64,000 nucleotides of DNA from an uncultured Solirubrobacterales bacterium (GTDB lineage: Bacteria; Actinomycetota; Thermoleophilia; Solirubrobacterales; 70-9), in NCBI GenBank assembly GCA_963728875.1, contig CAVSLJ010000002.1, forward strand, positions 461,821 to 525,820. The letters run 5' to 3'. The notes beneath the pieces were generated by a model. That model made no database searches, was not told the DNA's origin, and was given only the letters and a program-made list of their open reading frames with translations. The translations under genes were made by a program, and so were the position numbers. Numbering within the stretch: the first letter of the stretch is position 1; each line of letters starts with the position of its first letter. Positions 6,893-60,828 of this stretch are shown here, piece by piece.

Positions 6893-7160
6893 CATTTGAC
6901 GCGGTGATGAACGAGCTTGGGAGTGGCGGTGGGGCGGGACGGCTCCCACCTCCGTTCGCTCGCCGGTGCCCGGGTTGGATTCCGCCGGACAGCCGCGTGC
7001 CGTCCTGACGGCCCCTTGGGCCCTACGTAACAGCGCCCGGGCCTAGCGGCCCTGCACCTCCAGAGTCCCGTCAAGCAATGAATTCAAGTTAGGACCACCT
7101 CCTTTCTCTGGTCCCACTATTCAAGCATGCGCCCCGGCCGTGGCTAGAGTGCGCGTCCAG

Positions 7161-7634
7161 ATGATCCGCCGGCACTGGATTCCGATGGTCCTTGTGATCG
7201 CCCTGGTCGGTGCCGTCGGTGCCGGCTGCGGCGGCGGGAAGGAGCAGGTGTCGGCCGCGGAGCTTGTCCAGAAGGCAGACCAGGCCTGTCAGGAGGAGCA
7301 GAGCCGGTTCCGCGAGATCCAGGCGACGCCTCCGGCCAACGCCTCCGAGGCCGCCGACCAGACCAAGGCGCTGATCGAGGCAGCCGAGAACGCCAGTTCC
7401 ACGATCGGCGACCTCGAGCCGCCCGATGAGCTCCGGACGCAGTTCGACGCCTATCTCAATGCCCGCGATCAGGCGATCGAGGACCTGAAGAAGGGGCAGG
7501 ACGCCGCCGAGGACCAGGACTCACATGCGTACGGGGAGGCGCAGTCAGCGGTGACGAAGAGCGCGCCCCATCGGAAGAAGCTCGCCGGCTCCCTCGGCTT
7601 CACGGTCTGCAGCCGGAACGCCGGAGCCGCCTGA
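7161..7634 (+). CDS. Putative lipoprotein, unknown function
   Basis: Signal peptide ending in the lipobox-like VGAGC (MIRRHWIPMVLVIALVGAVGAGCGGG). The start could instead be GTG 7140. Confidence 0.55.
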   Translation: MIRRHWIPMVLVIALVGAVGAGCGGGKEQVSAAELVQKADQACQEEQSRFREIQATPPANASEAADQTKALIEAAENASSTIGDLEPPDELRTQFDAYLNARDQAIEDLKKGQDAAEDQDSHAYGEAQSAVTKSAPHRKKLAGSLGFTVCSRNAGAA

Positions 7635-9325: not shown

Positions 9326-10213
9326 ATGCCAGAGCGAGCGACCTTCCGAGTAAAGACCGGTCTCGCCGAGATGCTCAAGGGCGGGGTGATCATGGACGTC
9401 ACCAACGCGGAGCAGGCGAAGATCGCCGAGGACGCCGGGGCCTGCGCCGTGATGGCCCTCGAGCGCGTGCCGGCGGACATCCGCGCACAGGGCGGCGTCG
9501 CCCGCATGTCGAACCCGGCCGTGATCAGGGAGATCCAGGACGCGGTGACGATCCCGGTGATGGCCAAGGCCCGGATCGGCCACTTCGCCGAGGCGCAGGT
9601 CCTTCAGTCCCTCGAGGTCGACTACGTCGACGAGTCCGAGGTCCTGACGCCGGCCGACGAGTCGAACCACATCGACAAGTTCGCCTTCGAGATCCCGTTC
9701 GTCTGCGGCGCCACCAACCTCGGCGAGGCCCTTCGCCGGCTCGGCGAGGGCGCGGCGATGATCCGCTCGAAGGGCGAGGCCGGCACCGGCAACATCGTCG
9801 AGGCCGTTCGGCACATGCGCGAGATCACCGGTGGCATCAAGCACCTCGCGTCGCTCCGCAATGAGCAGCTCGCGGGGGCCGCAAAGGAGCACCAGGCGCC
9901 GCTCGACGTCGTCCAGGACGTCGCGGAGCGAGGCTGGCTGCCGGTTCCCCTCTTCTGCGCCGGCGGAATCGCCACCCCGGCGGACGCCGCGCTGATGATG
10001 CAGCTCGGGGCCGAGGGCAACTTCGTCGGCTCGGGCATCTTCAAGAGCGAGGACCCCGCCCGGCGCGCCCGCGCCATCGTCGAGGCCACCACCCACTTCG
10101 AGGACGCCCAGCGCGTCGCCCAGGCCTCGATGGAGCTGGGGGACGCGATGCCCGGCCTCGAGATCGAGGCATTGGCCCAGGACGGCGGCCTGCTGCAGGG
10201 CCGCGGCGCGTAG
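9326..10213 (+). CDS. pdxS: Pyridoxal 5'-phosphate synthase, lyase subunit PdxS
   Basis: Highly conserved PdxS sequence ([42 protein letters not shown]...). ATG 9326 gives the normal length. Confidence 0.95.
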
Positions 10214-10214
10214 T

Positions 10215-10814
10215 TTGAGCGACCGTCCTCTCCGTATAGGCGTATTGGCCCTGCAGGGCGACTTCGAGGCGCATCGCCTGATGCTGGAGTCGCTCGGCGC
10301 GGCGGCGAGCGAGGTTCGAACGCCGGAGCAGCTGGTCGGGTTGGACGGCCTGGTGATCCCCGGCGGCGAGTCGACCACGATCACGATGGGGATGGAGAGG
10401 GAGGGGCTCGACAAGGCGATCTCGTCCTTCCACGATTCGGGCGGCCCGATCCTCGGGAGCTGCGCCGGGATGATCGTCTGCGACCGCGACCACCTCGCTC
10501 TGGCGGACTACGTCTGCCGCCGCAACGCCTTCGGCCGCCAGCTCCAGAGCTTCGAGCAGGACCTCCGAATTGAGGGGCTCGGCGAGGAGCCCCTCCGCGC
10601 CGTCTTCATCCGCGCGCCCTGGGTCGAGACGCACGGGCCGGAGGTGGAGATCCTCGCGGAGGCGCAGGGGAACCCGGTCGCGGTGCGCCAAGGGGGCCTG
10701 CTCGCAGTCGCTTTCCATGCCGAGCTCACGGACGATTTTCGCCTGCACGCCCTGTTCATGGCGATGTGTACTAGCGTCGCGGAGGACCTATCGAGATCGA
10801 GAGGCAGGGGCTGA
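10215..10814 (+). CDS. pdxT: Pyridoxal 5'-phosphate synthase, glutaminase subunit PdxT
   Basis: RIGVLALQGDF...GLVIPGGESTT...CAGMI motifs. The TTG start lies 1 nt after the pdxS stop. Confidence 0.9.
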   Translation: MSDRPLRIGVLALQGDFEAHRLMLESLGAAASEVRTPEQLVGLDGLVIPGGESTTITMGMEREGLDKAISSFHDSGGPILGSCAGMIVCDRDHLALADYVCRRNAFGRQLQSFEQDLRIEGLGEEPLRAVFIRAPWVETHGPEVEILAEAQGNPVAVRQGGLLAVAFHAELTDDFRLHALFMAMCTSVAEDLSRSRGRG

Positions 10815-10815
10815 G

Positions 10816-11793
10816 ATGAGCACGTCGCAGAGACTTCCCTTCCAGAGACGTCACGTCCGAAGCGCGATGCTGGTGGCGTCGCTGTTGACCGCGTTTCTGC
10901 TGGGTGGCGCTGGCGTCGCGCGTGCGGATACGGTGGCCTTTGGATTTACGGGAGGCGAGCAAACCTTCGCCGTGCCGGGAGGGGTGACGAGCGTCCGGGC
11001 CGTGCTCATCGGCGGTCACGGTGGCAACGGCGGCTTGAACCCCCCGAATCTGATCGGTCCGGGCGGTCTGGGCGGTCTCGCGGTCGGAGACCTCGTGGTC
11101 ACACCCGGGCAGATCCTGTACATCGAGGTCGGGGGAAACGGCGGCAACGGAGCCTCCAGTGGCGGCAACGTTCCGGGCGGATTCAATGGTGGCGGGACTG
11201 GCGGTGCAAGCATTGGGCCCACAGGCGGAGGGGGCGGCGGGGCGACCGACATCAGAACCACGAGTAGCAGCGTCGGCGCATCATCGCTCTCCACCCGGCT
11301 GCTGGCCGCCGGCGGCGGCGGAGGCGGTGGAGGAGCAGAGGACACCCTTGGGGGTCCCGGAGGGGCCGCCGGCGCGAATGGAGGCAACGGGGGCGCGGCT
11401 GGTTCTGGTGCTGGCGGAGGCGGCGCCACGGCGTCGGGTTCGGGCACAGGAGCCACAATTAACGGCGCCGTGGGGGAATTTGGCATCGGCGGAGCGGGAG
11501 GGGGGCAGACCGTGACCGGAGCCGGAGGCGGTGGCGGCGGAGGAGGCGGCATGTTCGGCGGCGGGGGCGGCGGTCATGGCCCAACCGGGAATCACGACGG
11601 CGGCGGTGGCGGCGGCGGTTCGAGTGCGTCCGGTGCCGGAGCCAGCAACGCATTCTTCGGGCTGGACGCCACTGGTGTCCCTTCAGCGACTCTGACCTAC
11701 ACGCCGGCGACGAAGAAGAAGTGCAAGAAGCACAAGAAGAAGCGCGCGGCCTCCGCGAAGAAATGCAAGAAGAAGAAGAAGAAGCGGAAGTAG
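10816..11793 (+). CDS. Secreted glycine-rich protein with C-terminal polylysine/Cys tail (paralogue 1)
   Basis: The ATG lies 1 nt after the pdxT stop. A signal peptide (AMLVASLLTAFLLGGAGVARA) is followed by an FxFTGxxQxFxVPxGVTSV...GGxGG start typical of bacterial Gly-rich domains and by long GGxGG tracts. The tail is TYTPATKKKCKKHKKKRAASAKKCKKKKKKRK. Confidence 0.75.
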   Translation: MSTSQRLPFQRRHVRSAMLVASLLTAFLLGGAGVARADTVAFGFTGGEQTFAVPGGVTSVRAVLIGGHGGNGGLNPPNLIGPGGLGGLAVGDLVVTPGQILYIEVGGNGGNGASSGGNVPGGFNGGGTGGASIGPTGGGGGGATDIRTTSSSVGASSLSTRLLAAGGGGGGGGAEDTLGGPGGAAGANGGNGGAAGSGAGGGGATASGSGTGATINGAVGEFGIGGAGGGQTVTGAGGGGGGGGGMFGGGGGGHGPTGNHDGGGGGGGSSASGAGASNAFFGLDATGVPSATLTYTPATKKKCKKHKKKRAASAKKCKKKKKKRK

Positions 11794-11815
11794 CGGGGCC
11801 GGTCGAGATGAGCCG

Positions 11816-12919
11816 ATGAGGGATCCCCGCGTCACGGCGCTCGCGCAGATCCTCGTCCGCCACTCGACCAAAGTGGCGGACGGCGACGTCTGCACGATCG
11901 AGGGTGAGTCGGCTGCCGAGCCCCTCCTGCAGGCGGTCTACGAGGAGGTCCTGAAGGCGGGGGGAAACCCGATCGTGAACATGGCATTGGAGGGCCAGTC
12001 CGCGTCCTACTTCGAGCACGCCTCAGACGAGCAGCTGGAGTGGATCTCGCCGGTCGCCGAGTGGGCGGTCGAGAACGCCGATGTCCGCATCGCGGTGATG
12101 GCGAGCCAGAACACGCGAGCCCTCTCGCAGGTGCTGCCCGAGAGGCAGGCGATGCGCCAGGCCGCGACGCAGAAGTTGATGAAGAGGGCCATGGAGCGGA
12201 GCGCCGAGGGCAGCTATCGCTGGGCGCTCACCCTGTTCCCGACCCACGCGTACGCGTCGGAGGCGGGCATGGGCCTGAGCGCCTACGAGGACTTCTACTA
12301 CGGCGCGTGCCTGGCGACGGACGAGGATCCGGTGGGCGCCTGGACGCGGACCTCCGAGGAGACCAAGCGCCTGGCGGACTGGATCCAGGGCCGCTCGGAG
12401 GTTCACGTCACCGGCGAGGGCACCGACCTCCGGCTCGGGATCGAGGACCGCACCTTCATCGCCGCCGACGGCAAGCACAACATGCCCGACGGAGAGTTCT
12501 TCACCGGCCCGGTCGAGGACTCCGCCGAGGGCGAGATCACCTTTCACCTGCCTGCGAGCTACGCCGGGCGCGAGGTCGCGGGCGTCCGCTTCCGCTTCGA
12601 GGGCGGCAAGGTCGTGGACGCGAGCGCCGAGAAGGGGGAGGAGTTCCTGATCGAGACGCTCGACACCGACGAGGGGGCGCGCAGGCTCGGCGAGCTCGGC
12701 ATCGGCACCAACTACGGGATCACGGCCGGAACCGGGGAGATCCTCCTCGACGAGAAGATCGGCGGAACCGTCCATCTGGCCGTCGGCCGCTCATACCCCG
12801 AGACCGGCGGCGTCAACGAGTCGGCCATCCACTGGGACATGATCTGCGACCTGCGCGAGGGCGGCCAGATCGAGGTTGACGGCGAGACGTTGCAGCGCGA
12901 CGGCGCATTTGTTGTCTAA
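11816..12919 (+). CDS. Aminopeptidase, peptidase M29 (AmpS/PepS-type) family
   Basis: The N-terminus (RVTALAQILVRHSTKVADGDVCTIEGESAAEPLLQAVYEEVLKAGGNPI) and the C-terminal GELGIGTN...IHWDM motifs fit the M29 thermophilic metalloprotease family. There is no signal peptide. Confidence 0.8.
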   Translation: MRDPRVTALAQILVRHSTKVADGDVCTIEGESAAEPLLQAVYEEVLKAGGNPIVNMALEGQSASYFEHASDEQLEWISPVAEWAVENADVRIAVMASQNTRALSQVLPERQAMRQAATQKLMKRAMERSAEGSYRWALTLFPTHAYASEAGMGLSAYEDFYYGACLATDEDPVGAWTRTSEETKRLADWIQGRSEVHVTGEGTDLRLGIEDRTFIAADGKHNMPDGEFFTGPVEDSAEGEITFHLPASYAGREVAGVRFRFEGGKVVDASAEKGEEFLIETLDTDEGARRLGELGIGTNYGITAGTGEILLDEKIGGTVHLAVGRSYPETGGVNESAIHWDMICDLREGGQIEVDGETLQRDGAFVV

Positions 12920-12947
12920 AGGGCGTCGCTGCTGATAGGAATAGGGA

Positions 12948-13883
12948 GTGTCTCGGCTTCGCCGCAGCCTGATCGGGGGGTCGGTCCTGGTCGGCTGCTT
13001 GGTCATGGCAGGAGTGGCTCAGGCCGCGAGCACCACCGTCACCTTCTCCTCGACCGGGGCGGAACAGCTCTTCGCCGTCCCCGCCGGCGTGACGAGCGTT
13101 CACGCCGTCGCGATCGGCGCGCCGGGCGGCATCTTCGCGGGCTCGGGCCCGGGCGGGTCGGGCGGCCTCGCGGTCGCCGACCTGGCCGTGAAACCCTCAC
13201 AGACGCTCTACATCGAGGTCGGCGGCCGAGGCGGTAACGGGAGCACCGTGGGCGGGGCGCCCGGGTTCAATGGCGGCGGGGCCGGTGGCCACTGCGCCGC
13301 GGCGGGCGGCGCCGGGGGCGGAGGCGCCTCTGATATCCGCACCCAGCCGCTCTCGCTTGGAGATCCTTCACTCCTTTCGCGCCTGGTCGTCGCAGCGGGC
13401 GGAGGCGGGAGCGGCGCGGAAGAGGGCAACAACGCCGGCGGCGCTGGCGGCGCGGCGGGCCTCCCGGGTGGGAACGGAGTCGGGACCGCGGTCGGCGGTC
13501 AAGGCGCGACGCCGACGGGAACGGGCCAGGGCGGGGGTAGCGGCGCAGGGGCCGGAGCCATCGGCGCGTTTGGCATCGGCGGCGCGGGTGGCACGATTGG
13601 CGGCCCGGTCAGCTGCGGAGGCGGCGGCGGAGGCGGCGCAGGCCAGTTCGGTGGCGGCGGGGGCAGCAGCGGCAACTTCGGCATGGATCCGGGCGCCGGA
13701 GGAGGCGGCGGCTCGAACGGCGCCGGCGCCGGCGCCTCCAGTCTGCTCTTCGGCATCGACACGACAGGGGTGCCGTCGGTGACCCTCACCTACACGCCCG
13801 CGGCGAAGAAGTGCAAGAAGAAGAAGAAGCATGGGCGGGCCGCTGCCGCCAAGAAGTGCAAGAAAAAGAAGAAGAAGCACTGA
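12948..13883 (+). CDS. Secreted glycine-rich protein with C-terminal polylysine/Cys tail (paralogue 2)
   Basis: Same architecture as 10816..11793: signal peptide, TVTFSSTGAEQLFAVPAGVTSVHAVAIGAPGG, Gly tracts, and the tail TYTPAAKKCKKKKKHGRAAAAKKCKKKKKKH. Confidence 0.75.
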   Translation: MSRLRRSLIGGSVLVGCLVMAGVAQAASTTVTFSSTGAEQLFAVPAGVTSVHAVAIGAPGGIFAGSGPGGSGGLAVADLAVKPSQTLYIEVGGRGGNGSTVGGAPGFNGGGAGGHCAAAGGAGGGGASDIRTQPLSLGDPSLLSRLVVAAGGGGSGAEEGNNAGGAGGAAGLPGGNGVGTAVGGQGATPTGTGQGGGSGAGAGAIGAFGIGGAGGTIGGPVSCGGGGGGGAGQFGGGGGSSGNFGMDPGAGGGGGSNGAGAGASSLLFGIDTTGVPSVTLTYTPAAKKCKKKKKHGRAAAAKKCKKKKKKH

Positions 13884-13972
13884 GCCCGCAACCCAGGCCC
13901 GCCTACCGGGTTTAGGGGATGACAACAGCAGGCGCTCGGGGGGAGACGGGCCCTCATTACAGGAGGGACATC

Positions 13973-14590
13973 ATGTTCGGACGCAAGCTGGGACTGGTCG
14001 CCGTCGCGGCGCTGGCCCTGGGTCTCGTTGTGGCGGCGCCGGCCGCGCAGGCGCGGAAGAAGGTCGTCACCAAGACGTTCGAGGTGGGAGTTGGCGCCCC
14101 CGGAGGTGGTGTGGCGATCCCCATCCCGGACGGCGCGGGCCAGGCGACGCAGCTGGCCCGCTCGAGGATCGACGTCAGAGGCCTCAACCCGCGCGGGAAG
14201 ATCAAGGACGTCAACGTCGGGGTCCGTGCTCAGCACCCCTTCGCGAAGGACCTCGAGTTCTATCTCGCCACCCCGCGCGGGGTGATCAACCTCTCGCACG
14301 ACGTGGGCGGTGACGGCAACAACTACGGGGCGGGTCCCGCGAGCTGCGCCGGCATCTTCACGACGTTCGACAGCGACACTCCCACCAGCATCGCCACCGA
14401 TGGGCTGCAGGCGCCGTTCGCCGGTTTCTTCGCCCCGATGGAGAGCCTCAACCTGCTCAACGGGCTCGGTGACAAGAAGGCGACCAACGCCGGCTGGTCG
14501 CTGCTCGCCGAGGACGATGACAACAGCCATCCCGCCGGGACGCTGGAGTGCTGGTACATGACGATCGTCACGACGAACCCGAGGCATTAG
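13973..14590 (+). CDS. Secreted stand-alone proprotein-convertase P-domain protein (paralogue P1)
   Basis: AGGAGGG Shine-Dalgarno before ATG 13973. The signal peptide ends AAQA, followed by RKK. P-domain hallmarks are present: IPD..., IKDVNVGVRAQHPFAKDLEFYLATPRG, and GWSLLAEDDDNSHPAGTLECWYMTI. Confidence 0.75.
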   Translation: MFGRKLGLVAVAALALGLVVAAPAAQARKKVVTKTFEVGVGAPGGGVAIPIPDGAGQATQLARSRIDVRGLNPRGKIKDVNVGVRAQHPFAKDLEFYLATPRGVINLSHDVGGDGNNYGAGPASCAGIFTTFDSDTPTSIATDGLQAPFAGFFAPMESLNLLNGLGDKKATNAGWSLLAEDDDNSHPAGTLECWYMTIVTTNPRH

Positions 14591-15433: not shown

Positions 15434-16417
15434 CTACTTCTTCTTCTTTTTCTTCCTCTTCTTGACCGTGTCCTTCGCGCAGTACGCGTAGGTGGCGGCG
15501 GAGCTGCCCGGCGGCTGCGCTCCGAAGCTCTGCAGGCCGAGGTGCCAGGTGCTGTTGCTCGTCGGCTCGAACTCGTCGATGCCGACGACGGGAGGGGATC
15601 CCATGTTGGACGGAATCGGGGAGAGGATGAACCCGCCCGAGAGGACATGTTGCTTTGCGGGACAGCTCGCGTCGGCGGACGCGCGGGAGTTGCTGCCGAA
15701 GGGGACGAGCGCCGAGACCTCGTTGATCGAGCGGCCCTTCGCGTCTCGTTCGCACAGGGCGGAGACGTTGATGTTGCCGCTGGCCGGGTTGGCGCTGCTC
15801 TCGAACGCCGAGATCGTCCACTGATTGAGGGCGGTCCGGCGCGACTGCAGGATCAAGATCCTGAAGGCACCGAAGCCGTTCACGTACGTGCCGAGGCCCG
15901 TGCCGTCGTATCCCGCGCTGACCACGTGCGTTCCGGCGGGACATTGGATCTGCAGGTTGGCGAGGATCCCGGAGGGGACCGTCGCCGTGCCGCTGACGAC
16001 CGTCGCGATCTGGCTCAGGTTGTTCGACTCACACCGCGCGACGGCGGTCAGGCTTCCCGACGCAGGTGGAGCCTGGAACGCATCCGACCTGGCGTTCCAG
16101 GCCGTCACACCAACTGGAACCGAGGTGGACGTCTCCGTCCGCAGGCCGCTGTTGTTGCTTGGCTCGTAGTGGGGGGAAACGATGTAACCGCCGCCCGAGA
16201 GGTGGGTTTTGCCGGCACAGTTGGTGGTCGCGCTGGCTGTGCCTGCTGACGACATCGGGGAGACGGCGGTCGTGCTGATTGCCGGCACCGGGTTCTTCTT
16301 CTTTTTCTTCTTGGCGACCGCCGGCGAGGCGACACCGAGGAAAAGCATCGCAGCGAGCGCCGCGATGCCGATCAGACCGAGGCGCCTGCCGAATCGGGCC
16401 TTCTCCCTCCCTCGCAT
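15434..16417 (-). CDS. Secreted protein with three tandem Cys-bracketed repeats of about 95 aa and polylysine runs at both mature ends
   Basis: Start chosen at the internal Met (MRGREKARFGRRLGLIGIAALAAMLFLGVASPAVA). KKKKKK follows directly after the AVA site. Three repeats each begin C(P)AGxHxxSGG(Y/F) and end xxxC. The C-terminus is CAKDTVKKRKKKKKK. Confidence 0.65.
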   Translation of the reverse strand: MRGREKARFGRRLGLIGIAALAAMLFLGVASPAVAKKKKKKNPVPAISTTAVSPMSSAGTASATTNCAGKTHLSGGGYIVSPHYEPSNNSGLRTETSTSVPVGVTAWNARSDAFQAPPASGSLTAVARCESNNLSQIATVVSGTATVPSGILANLQIQCPAGTHVVSAGYDGTGLGTYVNGFGAFRILILQSRRTALNQWTISAFESSANPASGNINVSALCERDAKGRSINEVSALVPFGSNSRASADASCPAKQHVLSGGFILSPIPSNMGSPPVVGIDEFEPTSNSTWHLGLQSFGAQPPGSSAATYAYCAKDTVKKRKKKKKK

Positions 16418-16518: not shown

Positions 16519-17181
16519 ATGAACGCAAGACGATCTCGGCTCGCGGTGATCGGTGTCCTCGCTCTGGCGGTCTGTGTCGCCGTCAGCCTGGCCGCCGGAA
16601 CCGCGGAGGCGAAGAAGGGCAAGAAGAAGCGTCTCACCGGAATCACGGTCAGCAGGATCACGCCGACCGCGATCCCCGCCGGAGACGGGACCAACGCGGT
16701 GGCCGGGGTGGCCTCAGTGCCGCTCACGGTGGGCAAGAAGGCCAAGGGCAGGGTGGTTAGCCCCAACTCGCTGTCCGTGACCTACCAGTTGACCGATCCG
16801 GCGGCGCACCTCGACGACATCGACATCAAGGTCACCGCGCCGGGCGGTCGCACCGTCTTCCTCGACAACCCCGCAGTGTTCTTCGCTGGGGGGGATACGG
16901 TGACCACGGTCGGGCCCCTGACCGAGTCGCCGGACTCGTCAACGGGCTTCTGCTTCCCGAACCCGGCCCCACCGCCGGCCGGATGCCCGGACGGCGACCC
17001 GGACAACTCGCTTGCACCGCCCTGGGCCGGTACGGCGAGGCTTCTCGCTCTCGCCAACTTCGCCGGTCTCGGCGCGAGGGGAACCTGGACGGTCAAGGCG
17101 CTGAACTTCAGTACGCGGGACACGCACGTGCTGAGCTCGGTGAGCATTCACATGAATCTGATCGCCAAGCCCGCGGGTTAG
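16519..17181 (+). CDS. Secreted P-domain-like protein (paralogue P2)
   Basis: GGGAGGTG Shine-Dalgarno. The signal peptide ends AEA, followed by KKGKKKR. It has IPAGDG..., DIDIKVTAPGGRTVFL, and a C-terminal GTWTVKALNFSTRDTHVLSSVSIHM. Confidence 0.65.
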   Translation: MNARRSRLAVIGVLALAVCVAVSLAAGTAEAKKGKKKRLTGITVSRITPTAIPAGDGTNAVAGVASVPLTVGKKAKGRVVSPNSLSVTYQLTDPAAHLDDIDIKVTAPGGRTVFLDNPAVFFAGGDTVTTVGPLTESPDSSTGFCFPNPAPPPAGCPDGDPDNSLAPPWAGTARLLALANFAGLGARGTWTVKALNFSTRDTHVLSSVSIHMNLIAKPAG

Positions 17182-17257: not shown

Positions 17258-17881
17258 ATGGCAAGGAAGCGTTCTCGCCTGGCGTTGCTGGGGGCGCTGA
17301 CGGTCGTGCTCACCGTCACCGTCGGTCTCGTCTCGGGCGGCGTCGCCGACGCGAAGAAAAAGAAGAAGAAGAAGAGCGCCAACGTCGCCTCCGTGAGCAG
17401 GGCGGTCAACGCGCAGATCCCGGATCGCGGGCCCGGAGCGGCCGGTCAGTACGGGCGGCTCGACACCGTCCTCACGGTCGGCAAGAAGTTCAAGGGCAAG
17501 ACGGTCGGCGTCCTCGAGTTCACCTTCCAGACGACCGGCGACGCCGTCAACTCGGGCGGCGATCTCCAGTTCGACATCACCGCCCCGAACGGCTACAGGC
17601 TCCCGGGCGACTGGTGGGACAACAGCATCGGCGGGCAGTCGATCGGTCCGCTGACGATCACTCCGAACTCGCCCCTGCGGACGTGCAACACGGCTACCCC
17701 GCCCTGCGCGAGTCCGTTCCAGACGCTGAACCGGCCGTTCGCCGGGACAGCCGGCGACAATGTGTTCGCCTGGTTCAGAGGGCTCCCGATGAGGGGCAAC
17801 TGGACGGTCACCGCGCTCGACACGGGCGTCGGGGACACCAGCATCCTCAACTCCGTGGCGCTCAAGATCACGGCGGCTTAG
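17258..17881 (+). CDS. Secreted P-domain-like protein (paralogue P3)
   Basis: GGGGAGG Shine-Dalgarno. The signal peptide ends ADA, followed by KKKKKKK. It has IPDRG..., VGKKFKGKTV, DLQFDITAPNG, and GNWTVTALDTGVGDTSILNSVALKI. Confidence 0.7.
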   Translation: MARKRSRLALLGALTVVLTVTVGLVSGGVADAKKKKKKKSANVASVSRAVNAQIPDRGPGAAGQYGRLDTVLTVGKKFKGKTVGVLEFTFQTTGDAVNSGGDLQFDITAPNGYRLPGDWWDNSIGGQSIGPLTITPNSPLRTCNTATPPCASPFQTLNRPFAGTAGDNVFAWFRGLPMRGNWTVTALDTGVGDTSILNSVALKITAA

Positions 17882-19325: not shown

Positions 19326-19961
19326 ATGAATAGGGCAACTTCGCGCGCTGCTCGGACGGGAACCCTGGCCCTGGTGCTCATCCTGCTCGTCGGGGCGTTG
19401 TTCGCCGATCTCGCCGATGCCAAGAAGAAGGGTGGCGGGACCGTGAACATCACCAGGCAGGTCGGCCTGCCTGTCCCCGACGCGACGGCGACGTCCAACG
19501 GCGTGCTCACCTCGACGATCCGGGTCGGGGGCAAGAGGTTCAAGGGCACCGTGATCCGGGACGTGAACGCGACGCTCCAGACGACGGGCTCGGCGGCCCA
19601 GTCCGCGAGCCAGATCGATGCTCGCCTCAGCGCTCCGAACGGGATGACGACCTGGTTGCTCGGCGGCAATCTCGCCGGGCAATCGATCGGGCCTCTCACG
19701 CTCGACGATGAGTCGCCCAATTATCTCGGCGGGACCGCGCCGCGCGACCCGACTGACCTGGTCTCTCCTTACATCGGCACCGCGCAACCGGATTGCTTCT
19801 CGGACCAGGGGGTCTGCACTCTCTGGCCGATGGATGGCGGCCCCGCGAGGGGGACCTGGACGCTTCGGGTCTACGACATCGACGACGCGCCCCTCGCGAC
19901 GAGCATTCTCAATCTCTGGCGCCTGACCGTGGCGACGGGCAAGCCCTACAGGACCAGATAG
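19326..19961 (+). CDS. Secreted P-domain-like protein (paralogue P6)
   Basis: Starts 9 nt after the P5 stop. The signal peptide ends ADA, followed by KKKGGG. It has GGKRFKGTVIRDVNATLQTTG, LSAPNG, GPLTLDD, QPDC...GVC, GTWTLRVYD, and ATGKPYRTR. Confidence 0.7.
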   Translation: MNRATSRAARTGTLALVLILLVGALFADLADAKKKGGGTVNITRQVGLPVPDATATSNGVLTSTIRVGGKRFKGTVIRDVNATLQTTGSAAQSASQIDARLSAPNGMTTWLLGGNLAGQSIGPLTLDDESPNYLGGTAPRDPTDLVSPYIGTAQPDCFSDQGVCTLWPMDGGPARGTWTLRVYDIDDAPLATSILNLWRLTVATGKPYRTR

Positions 19962-23049: not shown

Positions 23050-26013
23050 GTGAGCAACCGCCGCCGCAACATCTTCATCCTCGCGTTCGTCGCGCTCCTG
23101 ATCGTCGGGTCGGGGCTCGTCATCGCGACCAAGAAGACGACGCTCGGCCTCGATCTGAAGGGCGGGACCGAGCTGATCTTCCAGGCGAAGCCCACTCCCC
23201 AGAACCCGACGATCGACAGCGCGGACATGGACCGCGCGATCGAGATCATCCGGAAGCGGACCGACGCCTTCGGCGTGTCCGAGCCCGAGATCTCGAGGAT
23301 CGGCTCGGACTCGATCCGCGTCGGCCTGCCGGATGTCTCCAACGCGGCCCGCGCCAGCGACCAGGTCGGGCAGACCGCGCAGCTGCACTTCTACGACTGG
23401 GAGCCCAACGTCATCCCGAACCCGGCGAAGACGAACGTGCCGAACGGAGAGTCCTCGTTCGACCGGCTCTACGACGCCGTCCAGGTCGCCTCCAAGCAGA
23501 CCCCCGAGTGCTTCGAGAACAAGTGCACGACGACCGGGGCCCGCCATTACCTCTTCGACTCGCAGACGCACCAGTACATCTCCGGGCCGGCGGACAACAA
23601 GCAGGACCTCTTCAGCGAGCTGCCGGGGCAGAGGCAGCCCGCCCACAGCGAGATCCTCACCGTCCCGCAGGGGACCCTGGTGGTGGAGAAGGAGGGCCTC
23701 AACGGACCGGCGCCGGATGACCCCAACAGCCCGGAGGCCGAGTGGTTCGTGATTCGGGACCGTCCGGCGCTCTCGGGGACCGACATCAAGGACCCGAAGG
23801 CGAACTTCGACCAGTTCAACAACCCGGACGTGACGTTCGGGTTCACCGACACTGGCAGGGAGGAGTTCTCGGACGTCACCAAGGCGATCGCCCAGCGCGG
23901 GCTGCAGAGCGCGCCGCCGGGGGTCGCGGGCAACTCTCAGCTCGCGGACCAATACTCGGGGCACTTCGCCGTCGTCCTGGATCAGCAGATCAAGTCGCGG
24001 CCGATCGTCAACTTCGTCGACAACCCGAGCGGGATCGACGGCCGAACCGGCGCCGAGATCAACGGCCTCGGGCTGCAGGAGTCGCAGGACCTGGCCGAGA
24101 TCCTCCAGATCGGCGCGCTGCCGGTCACCCTGAACCAGATCTCGAGCTCCACGGTGTCGGCGACCCTCGGCCAGCAGGCGCTCGATCAGGGCCTGAAGGC
24201 GGGGATCGTCGGGCTGATCCTGGTCTGCCTCTTCCTGCTCATCTACTACCGCTTCCTGGGCTTCGTCGCGGTCGTCGGGCTGGCGATCTACGGCGTGCTC
24301 TTCTTCGCGCTGATCAAGCTGATCCCGATCACCCTGACCCTGCCGGGCATCGCGGGGTTGATCCTCACGATCGGGGTGGCGGCCGACGCCAACATCGTCA
24401 TCTTCGAGCGCATCAAGGAGGAGGCGAGGGGCGGCAAATCGATGCTGAGCGCGATCTCGGCCGGCTACAAGCGCGGGATCGCGACGATTATCGACGCGAA
24501 CGTGATCACGCTGATCACGGCATTCATCCTCTTCGCGCTCGCGACCTCGAACGTCAAGGGCTTCGCCTTCACCCTCGGCGTGGGAACGATCGCCTCGCTG
24601 TTCACGGCCGTCGTCTTCACGCAGGCCTTCCTCGGGCTCTTCGGGCGGGCGCACTTCCTGCGCTCGCCGGCCGCACTCGGAGCGCGCGAGCAGCGCTTCA
24701 AGTGGCGCTTCGACTTCAGCCGGGCGAGCAAGTACTTCTTCAGCCTCTCCGGCTGCATCCTGCTGATCGGCGCGCTCTCCTTCGCGACCAAGCAGCTCAA
24801 CCTCGGCATCGACTTCGAGGGCGGCAGCCGCATCACCGTCGGCCTGGCGAAGGCGGTGTCCGTGAACGACGTGCGGGACACGGTCGAAGCGGCCGGGATC
24901 AAGGACCCGCAGATCACCAAGGCGACCAACAAGGAGCTGGGCACGAACGTCTTCGAGATCGACTCGAAGGCGAGCCCCGAGGAGGTCCAGAAGGTTCAGC
25001 CCGCGCTGCAGAGCCAGTACGGCATCGTGACCAACGGCTTCAACTCGACCACGGTCGGGCCGACCTTCGGCCAGCAGGTGGCGAAGAGCGCGATCGAGGC
25101 GATCATCTTCTCGCTGCTGGTGATCGCGGCCTACGTGGCGTTCCGGTTCGAGCCCAAGTACGCGGTCCCCGTGATGATCGCCGTGGCTCACGACATCCTG
25201 ATCACAGGAGGCGTCTACTCGCTGACGGGGAGGGAGGTGACCAGCGGCACCGTCGCCGCGTTCCTGACCATCCTTGGTTATTCGCTCTACGACACCGTCA
25301 TCGTGTTCGACCGAATACGCGAGAACGTGCCGCGGCTGCCGCGGGCGACCTTCTCCCAGATCGTCAACCGCTCGATGAGCGAGGTCCTCACCCGGTCGCT
25401 GATCACCGGACTCTCCAGCGTCTTCCTCGTCTCGGTGCTGTTCGTGTTCGGGGGCGCGACCCTGAAGGACTTCGCCTTCGCGATGATGATCGGCCTCCTC
25501 TCGGGAACCTATTCGTCGATCTTCATCGCCTCGCCGGTGCTGACCCATTGGAAGGAGCGCGAGCCCGCCTACCGCCGCCGGCGCGAGCGAATCGAGGAGC
25601 AGATGGGCGGCGTGGTCCCGGCGTTCCCCGAGGAGAACGTGGTGGCTCGGGTGGACGGACATGAGGAGCCCGTGCAGGCCGAGACGCCGGTGCCCGCCGC
25701 GCCCGCTCCCAGCCGCTCCCAGGTTCCCGGTGTGGTCCCCGAGCCGCCCGGACCGGTGGCCCCGCCGCCGGCTCAGCCCGAGCCGCCGGCGCCCGCGGCC
25801 GAGCCCCAACCGCCCGCACCGGTCGGCGTTCCTGACACCGGCACCGACAGCGGCGACGGCAGCGGCCAGAGCGGCGACGGTGAGACACCGGCCGGCAATG
25901 GCGGCGCCGAGCCCGAGCGCCCCGAGCTCAGCGAGGCGAGCGCCGCCGCTCTCCGCCGAGCGCGCGAGCAATCCGGTGGCCGCAAGAAGCGAAAGCACGG
26001 GAGGAACCGCTGA
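23050..26013 (+). CDS. secDF: Protein translocase subunit SecDF (fused SecD-SecF) with Pro/Ala-rich C-terminal tail
   Basis: SecD periplasmic domain and two 6-TM modules (GLDLKGG..., IGVAADANIVIFERIKEE, LGIDFEGG..., DTVIVFDRIREN). The last 130 aa or so are low-complexity P/A/G/E. Confidence 0.9.
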   Translation: MSNRRRNIFILAFVALLIVGSGLVIATKKTTLGLDLKGGTELIFQAKPTPQNPTIDSADMDRAIEIIRKRTDAFGVSEPEISRIGSDSIRVGLPDVSNAARASDQVGQTAQLHFYDWEPNVIPNPAKTNVPNGESSFDRLYDAVQVASKQTPECFENKCTTTGARHYLFDSQTHQYISGPADNKQDLFSELPGQRQPAHSEILTVPQGTLVVEKEGLNGPAPDDPNSPEAEWFVIRDRPALSGTDIKDPKANFDQFNNPDVTFGFTDTGREEFSDVTKAIAQRGLQSAPPGVAGNSQLADQYSGHFAVVLDQQIKSRPIVNFVDNPSGIDGRTGAEINGLGLQESQDLAEILQIGALPVTLNQISSSTVSATLGQQALDQGLKAGIVGLILVCLFLLIYYRFLGFVAVVGLAIYGVLFFALIKLIPITLTLPGIAGLILTIGVAADANIVIFERIKEEARGGKSMLSAISAGYKRGIATIIDANVITLITAFILFALATSNVKGFAFTLGVGTIASLFTAVVFTQAFLGLFGRAHFLRSPAALGAREQRFKWRFDFSRASKYFFSLSGCILLIGALSFATKQLNLGIDFEGGSRITVGLAKAVSVNDVRDTVEAAGIKDPQITKATNKELGTNVFEIDSKASPEEVQKVQPALQSQYGIVTNGFNSTTVGPTFGQQVAKSAIEAIIFSLLVIAAYVAFRFEPKYAVPVMIAVAHDILITGGVYSLTGREVTSGTVAAFLTILGYSLYDTVIVFDRIRENVPRLPRATFSQIVNRSMSEVLTRSLITGLSSVFLVSVLFVFGGATLKDFAFAMMIGLLSGTYSSIFIASPVLTHWKEREPAYRRRRERIEEQMGGVVPAFPEENVVARVDGHEEPVQAETPVPAAPAPSRSQVPGVVPEPPGPVAPPPAQPEPPAPAAEPQPPAPVGVPDTGTDSGDGSGQSGDGETPAGNGGAEPERPELSEASAAALRRAREQSGGRKKRKHGRNR

Positions 26014-59946: not shown

Positions 59947-60828
59947 CTAGCGCTTGCGAAGCTTGACCTTCAGGGACTGCGTGAGGGGATCCCCGCCCGA
60001 CGGGGTGAAGGTGATCTGAGGCCTGACCTTGACCTTGCCGGTCTGTGCGAGGCGCCTCCGCTTCTTTCCCCTGGCCTTGATCCGAAGCAATACGGTGCCC
60101 GGCCCGGCGACGACCGTAGGGGCGCCGGCGCTCTTCACGGCATTGCCGGAGAGATCGAGCTCGCCGGGGTTGGGCACGTTGACCGGAAGCGATGCGCTTC
60201 CCCTCCTGGTGTTCCGGCTGATCTTCCCGAAGGTGAACTTGCTGGTCGGGGTGATCACGGCGGCTGCGTTGACCCGGAAGAAGGGTGTGGTGGTGCCGAA
60301 ATCTCCGGCCTGACCATCGGCGAGATCGCCTTGCCGAGTGAGCGCCGTCTCCCCGGGCACGGAGAAGTTGCAGGCATCGTCGCCGGGGTTGGTTCCGGAG
60401 TTCAGCCCCAGGATGTCGCCCGGCTTGGCGAGTACGTCGGCGGCGAACGTGTTGAGGACTCCGGGTGTCAGGTCATGAGGTACGTCGTGCGCGACGGCTT
60501 GATAGGTCGGCCCGGCGACCTGACGGAAGAGCTTCATCGTGTAGGTCTGGCCGGTATCCGTCGATGCGTAGGTGCTCCAGGACGTCACGGTCCACGAGGC
60601 GACGCCGTTCACGCTCGGCACGACATAGGGATTCCCTGACGTCACCGTCGGCTGTGTGGTGTCCCTCTGCGTGCTGCAGGCCCCCATCGGCGTCGACGCC
60701 GGCAGCTGCCCGATCGTCATCGTTGCCGCTCTCACGGCCGAGGCACCCACGGCGAGCCCAAGCACCGCCAGGATCGTCGCCAGGGCGAGCCGCCTGACCG
60801 GTCGCCCCTGTCGTTTGCACCGGGACAA
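59947..60828 (-). CDS. Hypothetical secreted protein with K/R-rich C-terminal beta-module
   Basis: TTG start and signal peptide (LALATILAVLGLAVGASAVRA). No recognised domain. The C-terminal 95 aa or so resemble the tail of the cupredoxin protein at 32368..33051. Confidence 0.5.
   Translation of the reverse strand: MSRCKRQGRPVRRLALATILAVLGLAVGASAVRAATMTIGQLPASTPMGACSTQRDTTQPTVTSGNPYVVPSVNGVASWTVTSWSTYASTDTGQTYTMKLFRQVAGPTYQAVAHDVPHDLTPGVLNTFAADVLAKPGDILGLNSGTNPGDDACNFSVPGETALTRQGDLADGQAGDFGTTTPFFRVNAAAVITPTSKFTFGKISRNTRRGSASLPVNVPNPGELDLSGNAVKSAGAPTVVAGPGTVLLRIKARGKKRRRLAQTGKVKVRPQITFTPSGGDPLTQSLKVKLRKR

Follow-up and report, generated by a model that had tools for sequence, protein, structure and literature searches.

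The glycine-rich domain of the receptor ALK contains 14 polyproline-II-type helices, as attributed to Li et al. 2021 in the statement that cites it in PMC11364801, and the classes of non-covalent wall-binding modules of Gram-positive surface proteins were reviewed in PMC5817068. Both bear on a 64,000-nucleotide stretch of DNA (hereafter, the window) from an uncultured Solirubrobacterales bacterium (GenBank assembly GCA_963728875.1, contig CAVSLJ010000002.1, positions 461,821 to 525,820 of the forward strand), in which two genes, A and B, are located on either side of a gene for an M29 aminopeptidase. The product of each gene combines a glycine-rich domain of the ALK type with a short C-terminal segment, here called the lysine-cysteine (KC) tail. 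With A and B, a known family gains new glycine-rich domains. The KC tail, which may hold extracellular proteins on the envelope of the cell that makes them, appears to be a terminal module that is used throughout the lineage and has so far not been described.

The two open reading frames (ORFs) share one layout, in which a signal-like N-terminus is followed by the start motif TVxFxxTGxEQxFxVPxGVTSV, a glycine-rich part of about 260 residues, the end motif GVPSxTLTYTPA, and the tail (Table 1). The original prediction, which was made from the sequence of the window, had described A and B as paralogues with signal-like N-termini, a strand motif, glycine tracts, the GVPSxTLTYTPA end, and two-Cys lysine tails, all of which were present in the ORFs. 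Residues 1–37 of A consist of a basic n-region, a hydrophobic stretch, and an AxA end (ARA/D, the slash marking the putative cleavage site), and a helix was placed at residues 10–29 in the structural model described below. Gene B starts with GTG, at a position where its orthologues in loci L012 and L016 have ATG, and these orthologues begin with MGLVRRSLIGG at the same place. The glycine-rich parts of both proteins are acidic and contain only 3–4 lysines and arginines. Mature A possesses two cysteines in total, both inside the tail, and mature B possesses four, again an even number. Comparison of A with B by phmmer gave E-values of 1e-66 to 1e-69, and the two are 58% identical in the family alignment. 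Composition-corrected BLASTP aligned only the last 56 residues, so the comparison based on hidden Markov models (HMMs) was used instead. Chance is far from accounting for this resemblance: the start motif was near-invariant in 71 homologues, and hundreds of protein clusters were retrieved with a profile of the tail alone, as described below. The G+C content of the window is approximately 69%. The third-position G+C content was 0.73 for A and 0.84 for B, compared with 0.88–0.94 for the neighbouring housekeeping genes, and these low values may stem from a mixed use of glycine codons or from a recent uptake of the genes. No exact copy of protein A was found when public assemblies were searched for it. 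A search of public sequencing runs with sampled words gave two soil DNA runs containing 5% of the words, and no RNA run was matched by them.

The KC tail follows the consensus T-KKKCKKKKH(K)RSAESAKKKKCKKKK[KRH], in which both cysteines are invariant and are separated by 11–19 residues, most commonly 15. The second cysteine is typically followed by 3–9 residues, which are mostly Lys, Arg, or His in the tails of class 1, and the 22 residues ahead of the tail comprise 67% Pro, Thr, Ser, Ala, and Gly. Two variants were distinguished among the 98 tail ORFs obtained from the metagenome scan described below. Class 2 has the form TGQRAAALKKCKKK-x7-13-KKCKKKAxxLP[VLIA] and was found in 19 of them (e.g., L082, L089, and L128), and class 3, found in 4 (e.g., L097, L114, and L189), ends in ...KKCKKKRRSAAALRG, that is, in LRG. 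The conserved non-basic ends of these two classes could be recognition motifs. In the AlphaFold2 model of full-length A, the tail exhibited a predicted local distance difference test score (pLDDT) of 56–70 and no secondary structure, and when it was modelled alone from 39 aligned tails, a pLDDT of 65 and a predicted template modelling score (pTM) of 0.13 were obtained with no fold, upon which the idea of a helical hairpin was dropped. A Cys2His2 metal site was also considered for the tail and discarded, as the flanking histidines are not conserved. When A, B, and the tail carriers were scanned with the Pfam and NCBIfam models, none of the models matched the tail. We found no description of it in the literature searched, and the review of surface display in monoderm bacteria (PMC5817068) includes no class of polybasic tails.

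The tail is by no means restricted to A and B. The search for other proteins with Lys-rich, Cys-containing tails that the original prediction had proposed was performed exhaustively with a profile HMM over 1.84 billion cluster representatives (50% identity), and yielded at least 362 protein clusters at a cut-off of E ≤ 0.001. The tail was located at the very C-terminus in at least 108 of the 127 newly found carriers. An initial word-indexed search with a profile of the tail had returned only proteins of 102 residues or fewer, which were fragments following TSP3-like, P-domain, NHL, and immunoglobulin (Ig)-like domains; in locus L018, an NHL-repeat propeller carries the same tail at its end. 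Furthermore, a DNA pattern scan of metagenomes identified at least 120 loci, including at least 98 ORFs with the motif no more than 25 residues from the stop codon, on contigs whose G+C content was 62–72% throughout. A crude signal-peptide pattern fitted 48 of the 62 full-length ORFs. The domains carried are diverse (beta-helix, Ig-like, RTX, LamG, PMP repeats, P-domain, and propellers), and NCBIfam models assigned the 127 carriers to choice_anch_Q (36), choice_anch_D (5), choice_anch_R (3), CSLREA_Nterm (11), and GlyGly_RbtA, or rhombotarget A (7). These families were defined on the grounds that the sorting signal at the end of their members varies from one lineage to another. The presence of the KC tail on choice-of-anchor, CSLREA, and rhombotarget A proteins hence indicates that it occupies the "anchor" slot. 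By sequence, the tail is thus a general module under selection, placed on unrelated extracellular domains, and is not peculiar to A and B. All of its carriers were from soil metagenomes.

The same modularity was observed among the relatives of A and B. Their closest homologues, namely proteins P0001 and P0003 and the copies in L012 and L016, possess the same tail. About one-tenth of the top 100 homologues have it or a longer variant, and glycine-rich homologues without the tail end in PASTA or Ig-like domains instead. Another shuffled C-terminal module, for which there is no Pfam model, was noted in the window: the last approximately 100 residues (...FGKISRNTRRGSASLPVNVPNPG...ITFTPSGGDPLTQSLKVKLRKR) of a secreted protein at 59947–60828 on the minus strand match a basic C-terminal domain that occurs on glycine-rich homologues, e.g., P0091 (E = 5e-24). 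In addition, tail genes were found in tandem in L201 (three at 9794–11822, of which two look like C-terminal fragments) and L202 (two at 9887–11118). The public gene calls for several of them are only 60–100 residues long. The short calls and the fragment-like tandem copies suggest that gene callers often truncate tail genes, or that many copies are decaying.

The tail is not bound to the C-terminus either. In 13 metagenome loci (listed in Table 1), an AxA signal-peptidase site immediately precedes the complete two-Cys lysine module. A short spacer then leads to a small globular domain (often ...VVRATLTWSNGG...), which has another two cysteines, and a C-terminal anchor is absent. The module is thus position-independent. 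The cysteine counts of the carriers were strikingly regular. Among the full-length carriers, an export signal was recognisable in 48, and the number of cysteines outside the tail was even (0, 2, 4, or 6) in every one of these 48 (p = 3.6e-15); even counts exceeded odd ones by 67 to 5 in the glycine-rich family; every secreted protein examined in the window also has an even count. Strict even parity is a signature of exported, fully disulfide-bonded proteins, which implies that a tail cysteine has as its partner either the other cysteine of its own tail or one in another tail. The two cysteines of one tail probably form a disulfide bond.

The glycine-rich domain had been predicted to be of the Gly_rich, or ALK, type, and this assignment was borne out by independent searches. 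Against Pfam family PF12810 (ALK_LTK_GRD, formerly Gly_rich), A scored 25.9 bits (E = 1.2e-5), which exceeds the gathering threshold of 24.5 bits, and B scored 19.2 bits (E = 1.3e-3), which is under it. At least 1188 of 8000 scored candidates were homologues of A; nearly all of them were annotated as PF12810, and those with a named source were from Solirubrobacterales. A profile of 71 family members detected ALK (E = 1e-6) and LTK (E = 2.5e-4) in the PDB, the remaining matches being synthetic Gly-Ser linkers. The stretch best aligned with ALK and LTK is the N-terminal strand region, which is not glycine-rich, and the match is therefore not an artefact of low complexity. The structure of A was predicted by AlphaFold2, which was fed the alignment of the 71 members, and a model with a mean pLDDT of 90.5 and a pTM of 0.83 was obtained. 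Within the domain, the pLDDT was 86–98 per 10-residue block and mostly 95–98, with few strands or helices assigned by DSSP. Most of the confident core (pLDDT 95–98) was left without a DSSP class, as would be expected if polyglycine-II-type helices were present. When the model was compared with the PDB using Foldseek, the top 21 matches were all TG domains of ALK or LTK (probability 1.00, E = 5e-6 to 4e-4), which were followed by the tail tip of mycobacteriophage Bxb1 and then the fibre of cyanophage Pam3. Among predicted viral structures (BFVD), 138 matches with E ≤ 0.001 were obtained at template modelling (TM) scores of 0.5–0.6 and 25–32% identity, and these were chiefly virion or tail-fibre proteins of cyanophages and caulophages. 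Many of the phage glycine-rich proteins in BFVD bear the UniProt-derived name "receptor protein-tyrosine kinase", which has evidently been passed on automatically from the Pfam family named after ALK and is not a real kinase annotation. The domain of A and B is thus a member of a known, functionally uncharacterised branch of the ALK-type fold that comprises bacterial and phage proteins. Phage virion proteins gave the best structural matches, which suggests that the domains of A and B are probably rigid and exposed on a surface, with a function in binding or as a structural part.

These observations can be assembled into a mechanism. The glycine-rich domain would serve as a rigid, surface-displayed binding or structural unit, and the KC tail, with its two lysine runs and the cysteine embedded in each, would form an unstructured terminal module. 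After export to an oxidising compartment, the tail cysteines would be oxidised to close a loop of approximately 11–19 residues, giving a compact polycation with a net charge of +16 to +19. This polycation could hold the protein non-covalently on an anionic component of the envelope, for which a polymer of the wall and lipids with anionic head groups are candidates. In this lineage, extracellular domains of hundreds of unrelated kinds carry the generic module behind a spacer rich in Pro and Thr, in the architectural slot taken elsewhere by LPXTG, PEP-CTERM, and GlyGly-CTERM signals. The module can also be placed at the new N-terminus generated by signal-peptide cleavage. That the KC tail is such a disulfide-closed polycationic module, retaining proteins non-covalently on the surface of their own cell, is the account toward which we lean with slightly better than even confidence. 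Surface retention is backed by the export-type N-termini (crude pattern), the terminal modularity, the charge, the two cysteines with their parity, and the anchor-slot domains. The original prediction of a conserved, functional tail, with electrostatic attachment as its probable role, was strengthened by the presence of the tail in the closest homologues, its modular use on unrelated domains, and its position in the anchor slot.

Several points nevertheless weigh against this account. We infer, from the features just listed, both the surface location of the tail proteins and the anionic partner. The tail also exhibits conserved features beyond what charge needs, namely the H(K)RSAESA spacer and the LPV and LRG ends of the two variant classes, which could mean that it is recognised by a dedicated enzyme. 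In view of the positive-inside effect, a run of 15–20 lysines should be hard to move through Sec. The export signals of the carriers were called with a crude pattern that 48 of the 62 full-length ORFs fit, and the taxonomic range was taken from a few named metagenome-assembled genomes (MAGs) and the G+C content. With respect to the domain, the TM-scores between the model of A and ALK or LTK were low (0.32–0.39), and the putative polyglycine-II helices are read from blanks in the DSSP assignment at high confidence.

The best-surviving alternative regards the KC tail as a true sorting signal. In analogy to the sortase, exosortase, and rhombosortase systems, a dedicated Solirubrobacterales enzyme would recognise the tail and either cleave it or attach the protein to the envelope by a covalent bond, for which the cysteines might be used. 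The tail does stand beside choice-of-anchor, CSLREA, and rhombotarget A domains, where such signals are found; its invariant cysteines, HRSAESA spacer, and LPV or LRG termini resemble recognition motifs; and it is restricted to one lineage in which many proteins carry it. This alternative is nonetheless unlikely, as the tail lacks the hydrophobic helix that all known signals of this kind contain, the module is used at the mature N-terminus as well, where Cys-free poly-lysine runs also occur, the even cysteine parity fits a plain disulfide, and no candidate enzyme was found beside the tail genes in the 13–20-kb loci examined. A broader version, in which the tail is a recognition element of a Solirubrobacterales sorting or assembly system that employs an enzyme, thiol-disulfide coupling to the envelope, or a layer of cross-linked tails, was considered slightly less likely still. 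If it were true, the tail would work at either terminus, unlike any known sorting signal.

The polycation might instead face outward. In such a case, the tail would not retain secreted proteins on the producer cell but glue them to polyanions in its surroundings, among which extracellular DNA, acidic exopolysaccharide, humic matter, and the surfaces of clay or silica come into question, and would function as a tag for the extracellular matrix or for adhesion to soil. The physical logic is the same, as the peptide is unstructured and its net charge is +16 to +19, and the idea agrees with the soil origin of all the carriers and with the adhesin-like nature of many carried domains (beta-helix, RTX, Ig-like, and PMP repeats). 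The association with choice-of-anchor families and the PASTA domains that replace the tail in homologues favour the cell's own envelope, although neither destination is separated from the other by the present data. External polyanions were rated as an improbable target, on a level with the recognition element.

A membrane anchor resembling that of K-Ras, in which a polybasic stretch cooperates with a lipid-modified or thiol-reactive cysteine, is very improbable. The original prediction had pointed to this formal resemblance, in which cysteine is embedded in lysines near the terminus, and had allowed for thiol-dependent attachment. This part of it was not supported: there is no CAAX-like end or lipobox; 3–9 mostly basic residues typically follow the second cysteine; the variants end in LPV or LRG; and there are always two cysteines with even parity (48 even versus 0 odd), as expected for disulfides in exported proteins, which points to an intramolecular bond and away from free or lipidated thiols. 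The proteins also possess N-terminal export signals. A bacterial lipoprotein of the Lgt/Lsp type (lipobox L-[AS]-[GA]-C) was rejected separately, as the signal segments of A and B end in ARA/D and AQA/A, and lysines precede the cysteine after the AxA site in the N-terminal modules.

We also considered that the tail might matter as DNA or RNA, for instance as a hairpin, antisense terminator, or recombination site, with the peptide as a by-product. On the minus strand, 11738–11757 and 13834–13900 do score as terminator-like, in that a GC hairpin precedes a run of CTTCTT, and seven such sites were found as compared with 1.9 expected in shuffled sequences. A remnant of a tail upstream of the gene in L012 and the tandem arrays of tail genes might be read in the same sense. 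However, 94 distinct tail-coding sequences did not fold better than controls with synonymous codons (−11.8 versus −11.3 kcal/mol, z = −0.22, p = 0.22), so the terminator-like scores arise from the amino-acid content and codon usage. Together with the in-frame conservation of amino acids and the occurrence of the motif at protein termini in hundreds of unrelated genes, this largely refutes the nucleic-acid reading, to which we assign hardly any probability.

The gene located between A and B was examined by comparison with related genomes. An uncultured Solirubrobacterales MAG encodes an M29 protein with 96% identity to the one in the window, and the approximately 40 nearest loci are all from Solirubrobacterales or Thermoleophilia. 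In about 20 close relatives, the order pdxS–pdxT–M29–secreted protein–yebC is kept without A or B; the gap between pdxT and the M29 gene is approximately 35–45 bp, and that between the M29 gene and the next is approximately 15–25 bp, the 1.0-kb (A) and 0.96-kb (B) segments being absent. Glycine-rich genes were found beside the M29 gene only in L012 (one copy) and L016 (three tandem copies), in both cases at the downstream position of B. This indicates that A and B are accessory genes and do not constitute an operon with M29. They may have been duplicated or inserted recently. Glycine-rich genes are gained, duplicated, and lost quickly, the signs of which are as follows: a 9-bp direct repeat GAGATGAGC flanks gene A (10813–10821 and approximately 11806–11814); one of the three tandem copies in L016 (7132–10130) is frameshifted; in L012 (approximately 7270–7330), the tail remnant AKKCKKKKHG followed by a stop codon lies just upstream of the gene and is followed by a leader identical to that of gene B; and a possible deletion scar CACCGGCTGA was noted in L001 (approximately 7100–7130). 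The statement that A and B flank the M29 gene is physically true, and the synteny in the relatives renders the arrangement incidental. The caution expressed in the original prediction about a functional link was well placed, as A and B lie in two otherwise tiny gaps of a conserved row of housekeeping genes. Only the adjacency on a shared strand in the window speaks for the weakest reading, in which A, M29, and B form a functional unit and the glycine-rich proteins, or just their tails, would be processed by the peptidase. This reading has a next-to-negligible probability, since about 20 relatives retain the neighbours of the M29 gene without glycine-rich genes, the copies in L012 and L016 are located downstream only, the M29 protein has no export signal, and tail genes are scattered elsewhere in the genomes. 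A functional A–M29–B operon was thus ruled out by the synteny comparison.

Polybasic proteins are also found among the neighbours of gene B. Five proteins of the window have Cys-free lysine runs directly after the AxA site. Four of them, which are small and encoded on the plus strand, read AQA/RKKVV, AEA/KKGKKKR, ADA/KKKKKKK, and ADA/KKKGGG at this site; they share a weak signal for the proprotein-convertase P-domain and have exactly two cysteines each. It looks as if the polycation idea recurs in their lysine runs, at the N-terminus and with no cysteine. The fifth, at 15434–16417, has AVA/KKKKKKNPV at the start of the mature chain and ends in ...YCAKDTVKKRKKKKKK (KKRKKKKKK), and its C-terminal lysine run is kept in the orthologues from L001, L007, and L016. 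Further downstream, at 23050–26013 on the plus strand, a fused SecDF export-membrane protein of 987 residues with the basic end ...GGRKKRKHGRNR was noted, which may be relevant to the export of highly charged proteins.

Table 1. Position of genes A and B, their parts, and neighbouring features in the window, with the loci that hold an N-terminal KC module (a slash marks the putative signal-peptidase site)
Feature	Position	Strand	Remark
Gene A, secreted glycine-rich-domain protein, 325 aa, ATG start	10816..11793	+	intact ORF
Gene A, signal-peptide-like segment, residues 1–37, ...GAGVARA/DT	10816..10926	+	read from sequence
Gene A, glycine-rich domain, residues 38–298, 39% Gly, net charge −7	10927..11709	+	
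Gene A, tail TKKKCKKHKKKRAASAKKCKKKKKKRK, 27 aa, net charge +19	11710..11790	+	fits tail profile family
M29 aminopeptidase	11816..12919	+	Pfam PF02073, E = 2.9e-83; conserved gene between A and B
Gene B, paralogous secreted glycine-rich-domain protein, 311 aa, GTG start	12948..13883	+	intact ORF
Gene B, signal-peptide-like segment, residues 1–26, ...AGVAQA/AST	12948..13025	+	read from sequence
Gene B, glycine-rich domain, residues 27–285, 35% Gly, net charge −5, two Cys	13026..13802	+	
Gene B, tail AKKCKKKKKHGRAAAAKKCKKKKKKH, 26 aa, net charge +16	13803..13880	+	member of tail alignment and profile
Small secreted proteins, lysine run after AxA	13919–14590, 16519–17181, ~17258–17881, 19326–19961	+	
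Secreted protein, six Cys, polybasic at both mature ends	15434–16417	−	
Loci with N-terminal KC module: L081, L087, L102, L103, L121, L122, L126, L134, L142, L157, L171, L183, L192			

Solirubrobacterales are abundant but barely cultured soil Actinomycetota, whose cell surface is almost unexplored. The KC tail marks a large share of their secretome (at least 362 clusters), and could be used at once as a sequence tag for listing surface proteins from metagenomes. If it proves to be a salt-reversible, disulfide-stapled polycation anchor, a very small, position-independent device would be added to the known anchors, and its 25–30 residues might serve as a display tag. If a partner enzyme is needed, the tail would define a new sorting system. 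Furthermore, the probable tethering of bacterial glycine-rich domains to a surface gives a starting point for asking what the ALK-type fold binds.

Compared with known systems, the domains of A and B resemble the glycine-rich (TG) domain of ALK and LTK (PDB IDs: 7LRZ, 7LS0, 7N00, 7NX1, 7NX4, and 7NWZ) in the match to PF12810, the alignment of the N-terminal strand, and the glycine runs. They differ from it in being bacterial, free-standing, and secreted, with a polycationic tail and no kinase, EGF, or MAM context, and the identity over 19 near-full-length alignments was 16–22% at TM-scores of 0.32–0.39. No ALKAL-type ligand is known for A or B. The glycine-rich virion and tail-fibre proteins of phages (Bxb1 tail tip, 9D93; Pam3 fibre, 7YPX; and the cyanophage and caulophage entries in BFVD) gave the best structural matches of A; they have no KC tail, whereas A and B are single chromosomal genes with signal peptides located outside any prophage.

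The carriers of the KC tail have the same architecture as the substrates of the LPXTG/sortase, PEP-CTERM/exosortase, and GlyGly-CTERM/rhombosortase systems, i.e., an extracellular domain, a spacer, and a terminal signal. Unlike the signals of those systems, which combine a signature motif, a hydrophobic helix, and a basic cluster, the KC tail is wholly hydrophilic and is used at the N-terminus as well; when such a tripartite signal was looked for in the tails, no hydrophobic stretch was detected and no NCBIfam sorting-signal model matched. K-Ras4B-type tails share with it the lysine runs and a cysteine close to a terminus, and differ in that the KC tail has no CAAX box, possesses two cysteines with disulfide-type parity, and would act in an extracytoplasmic compartment. 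The job proposed here, reversible retention on a wall polymer, is that of the GW, LysM, SLH, choline-binding, WxL, and S-layer C-terminal modules. These wall-binding modules of Gram-positive bacteria are folded repeats of 40–80 residues, whereas the KC tail would perform the same task as an unstructured polycation of 25–30 residues closed by one probable disulfide.

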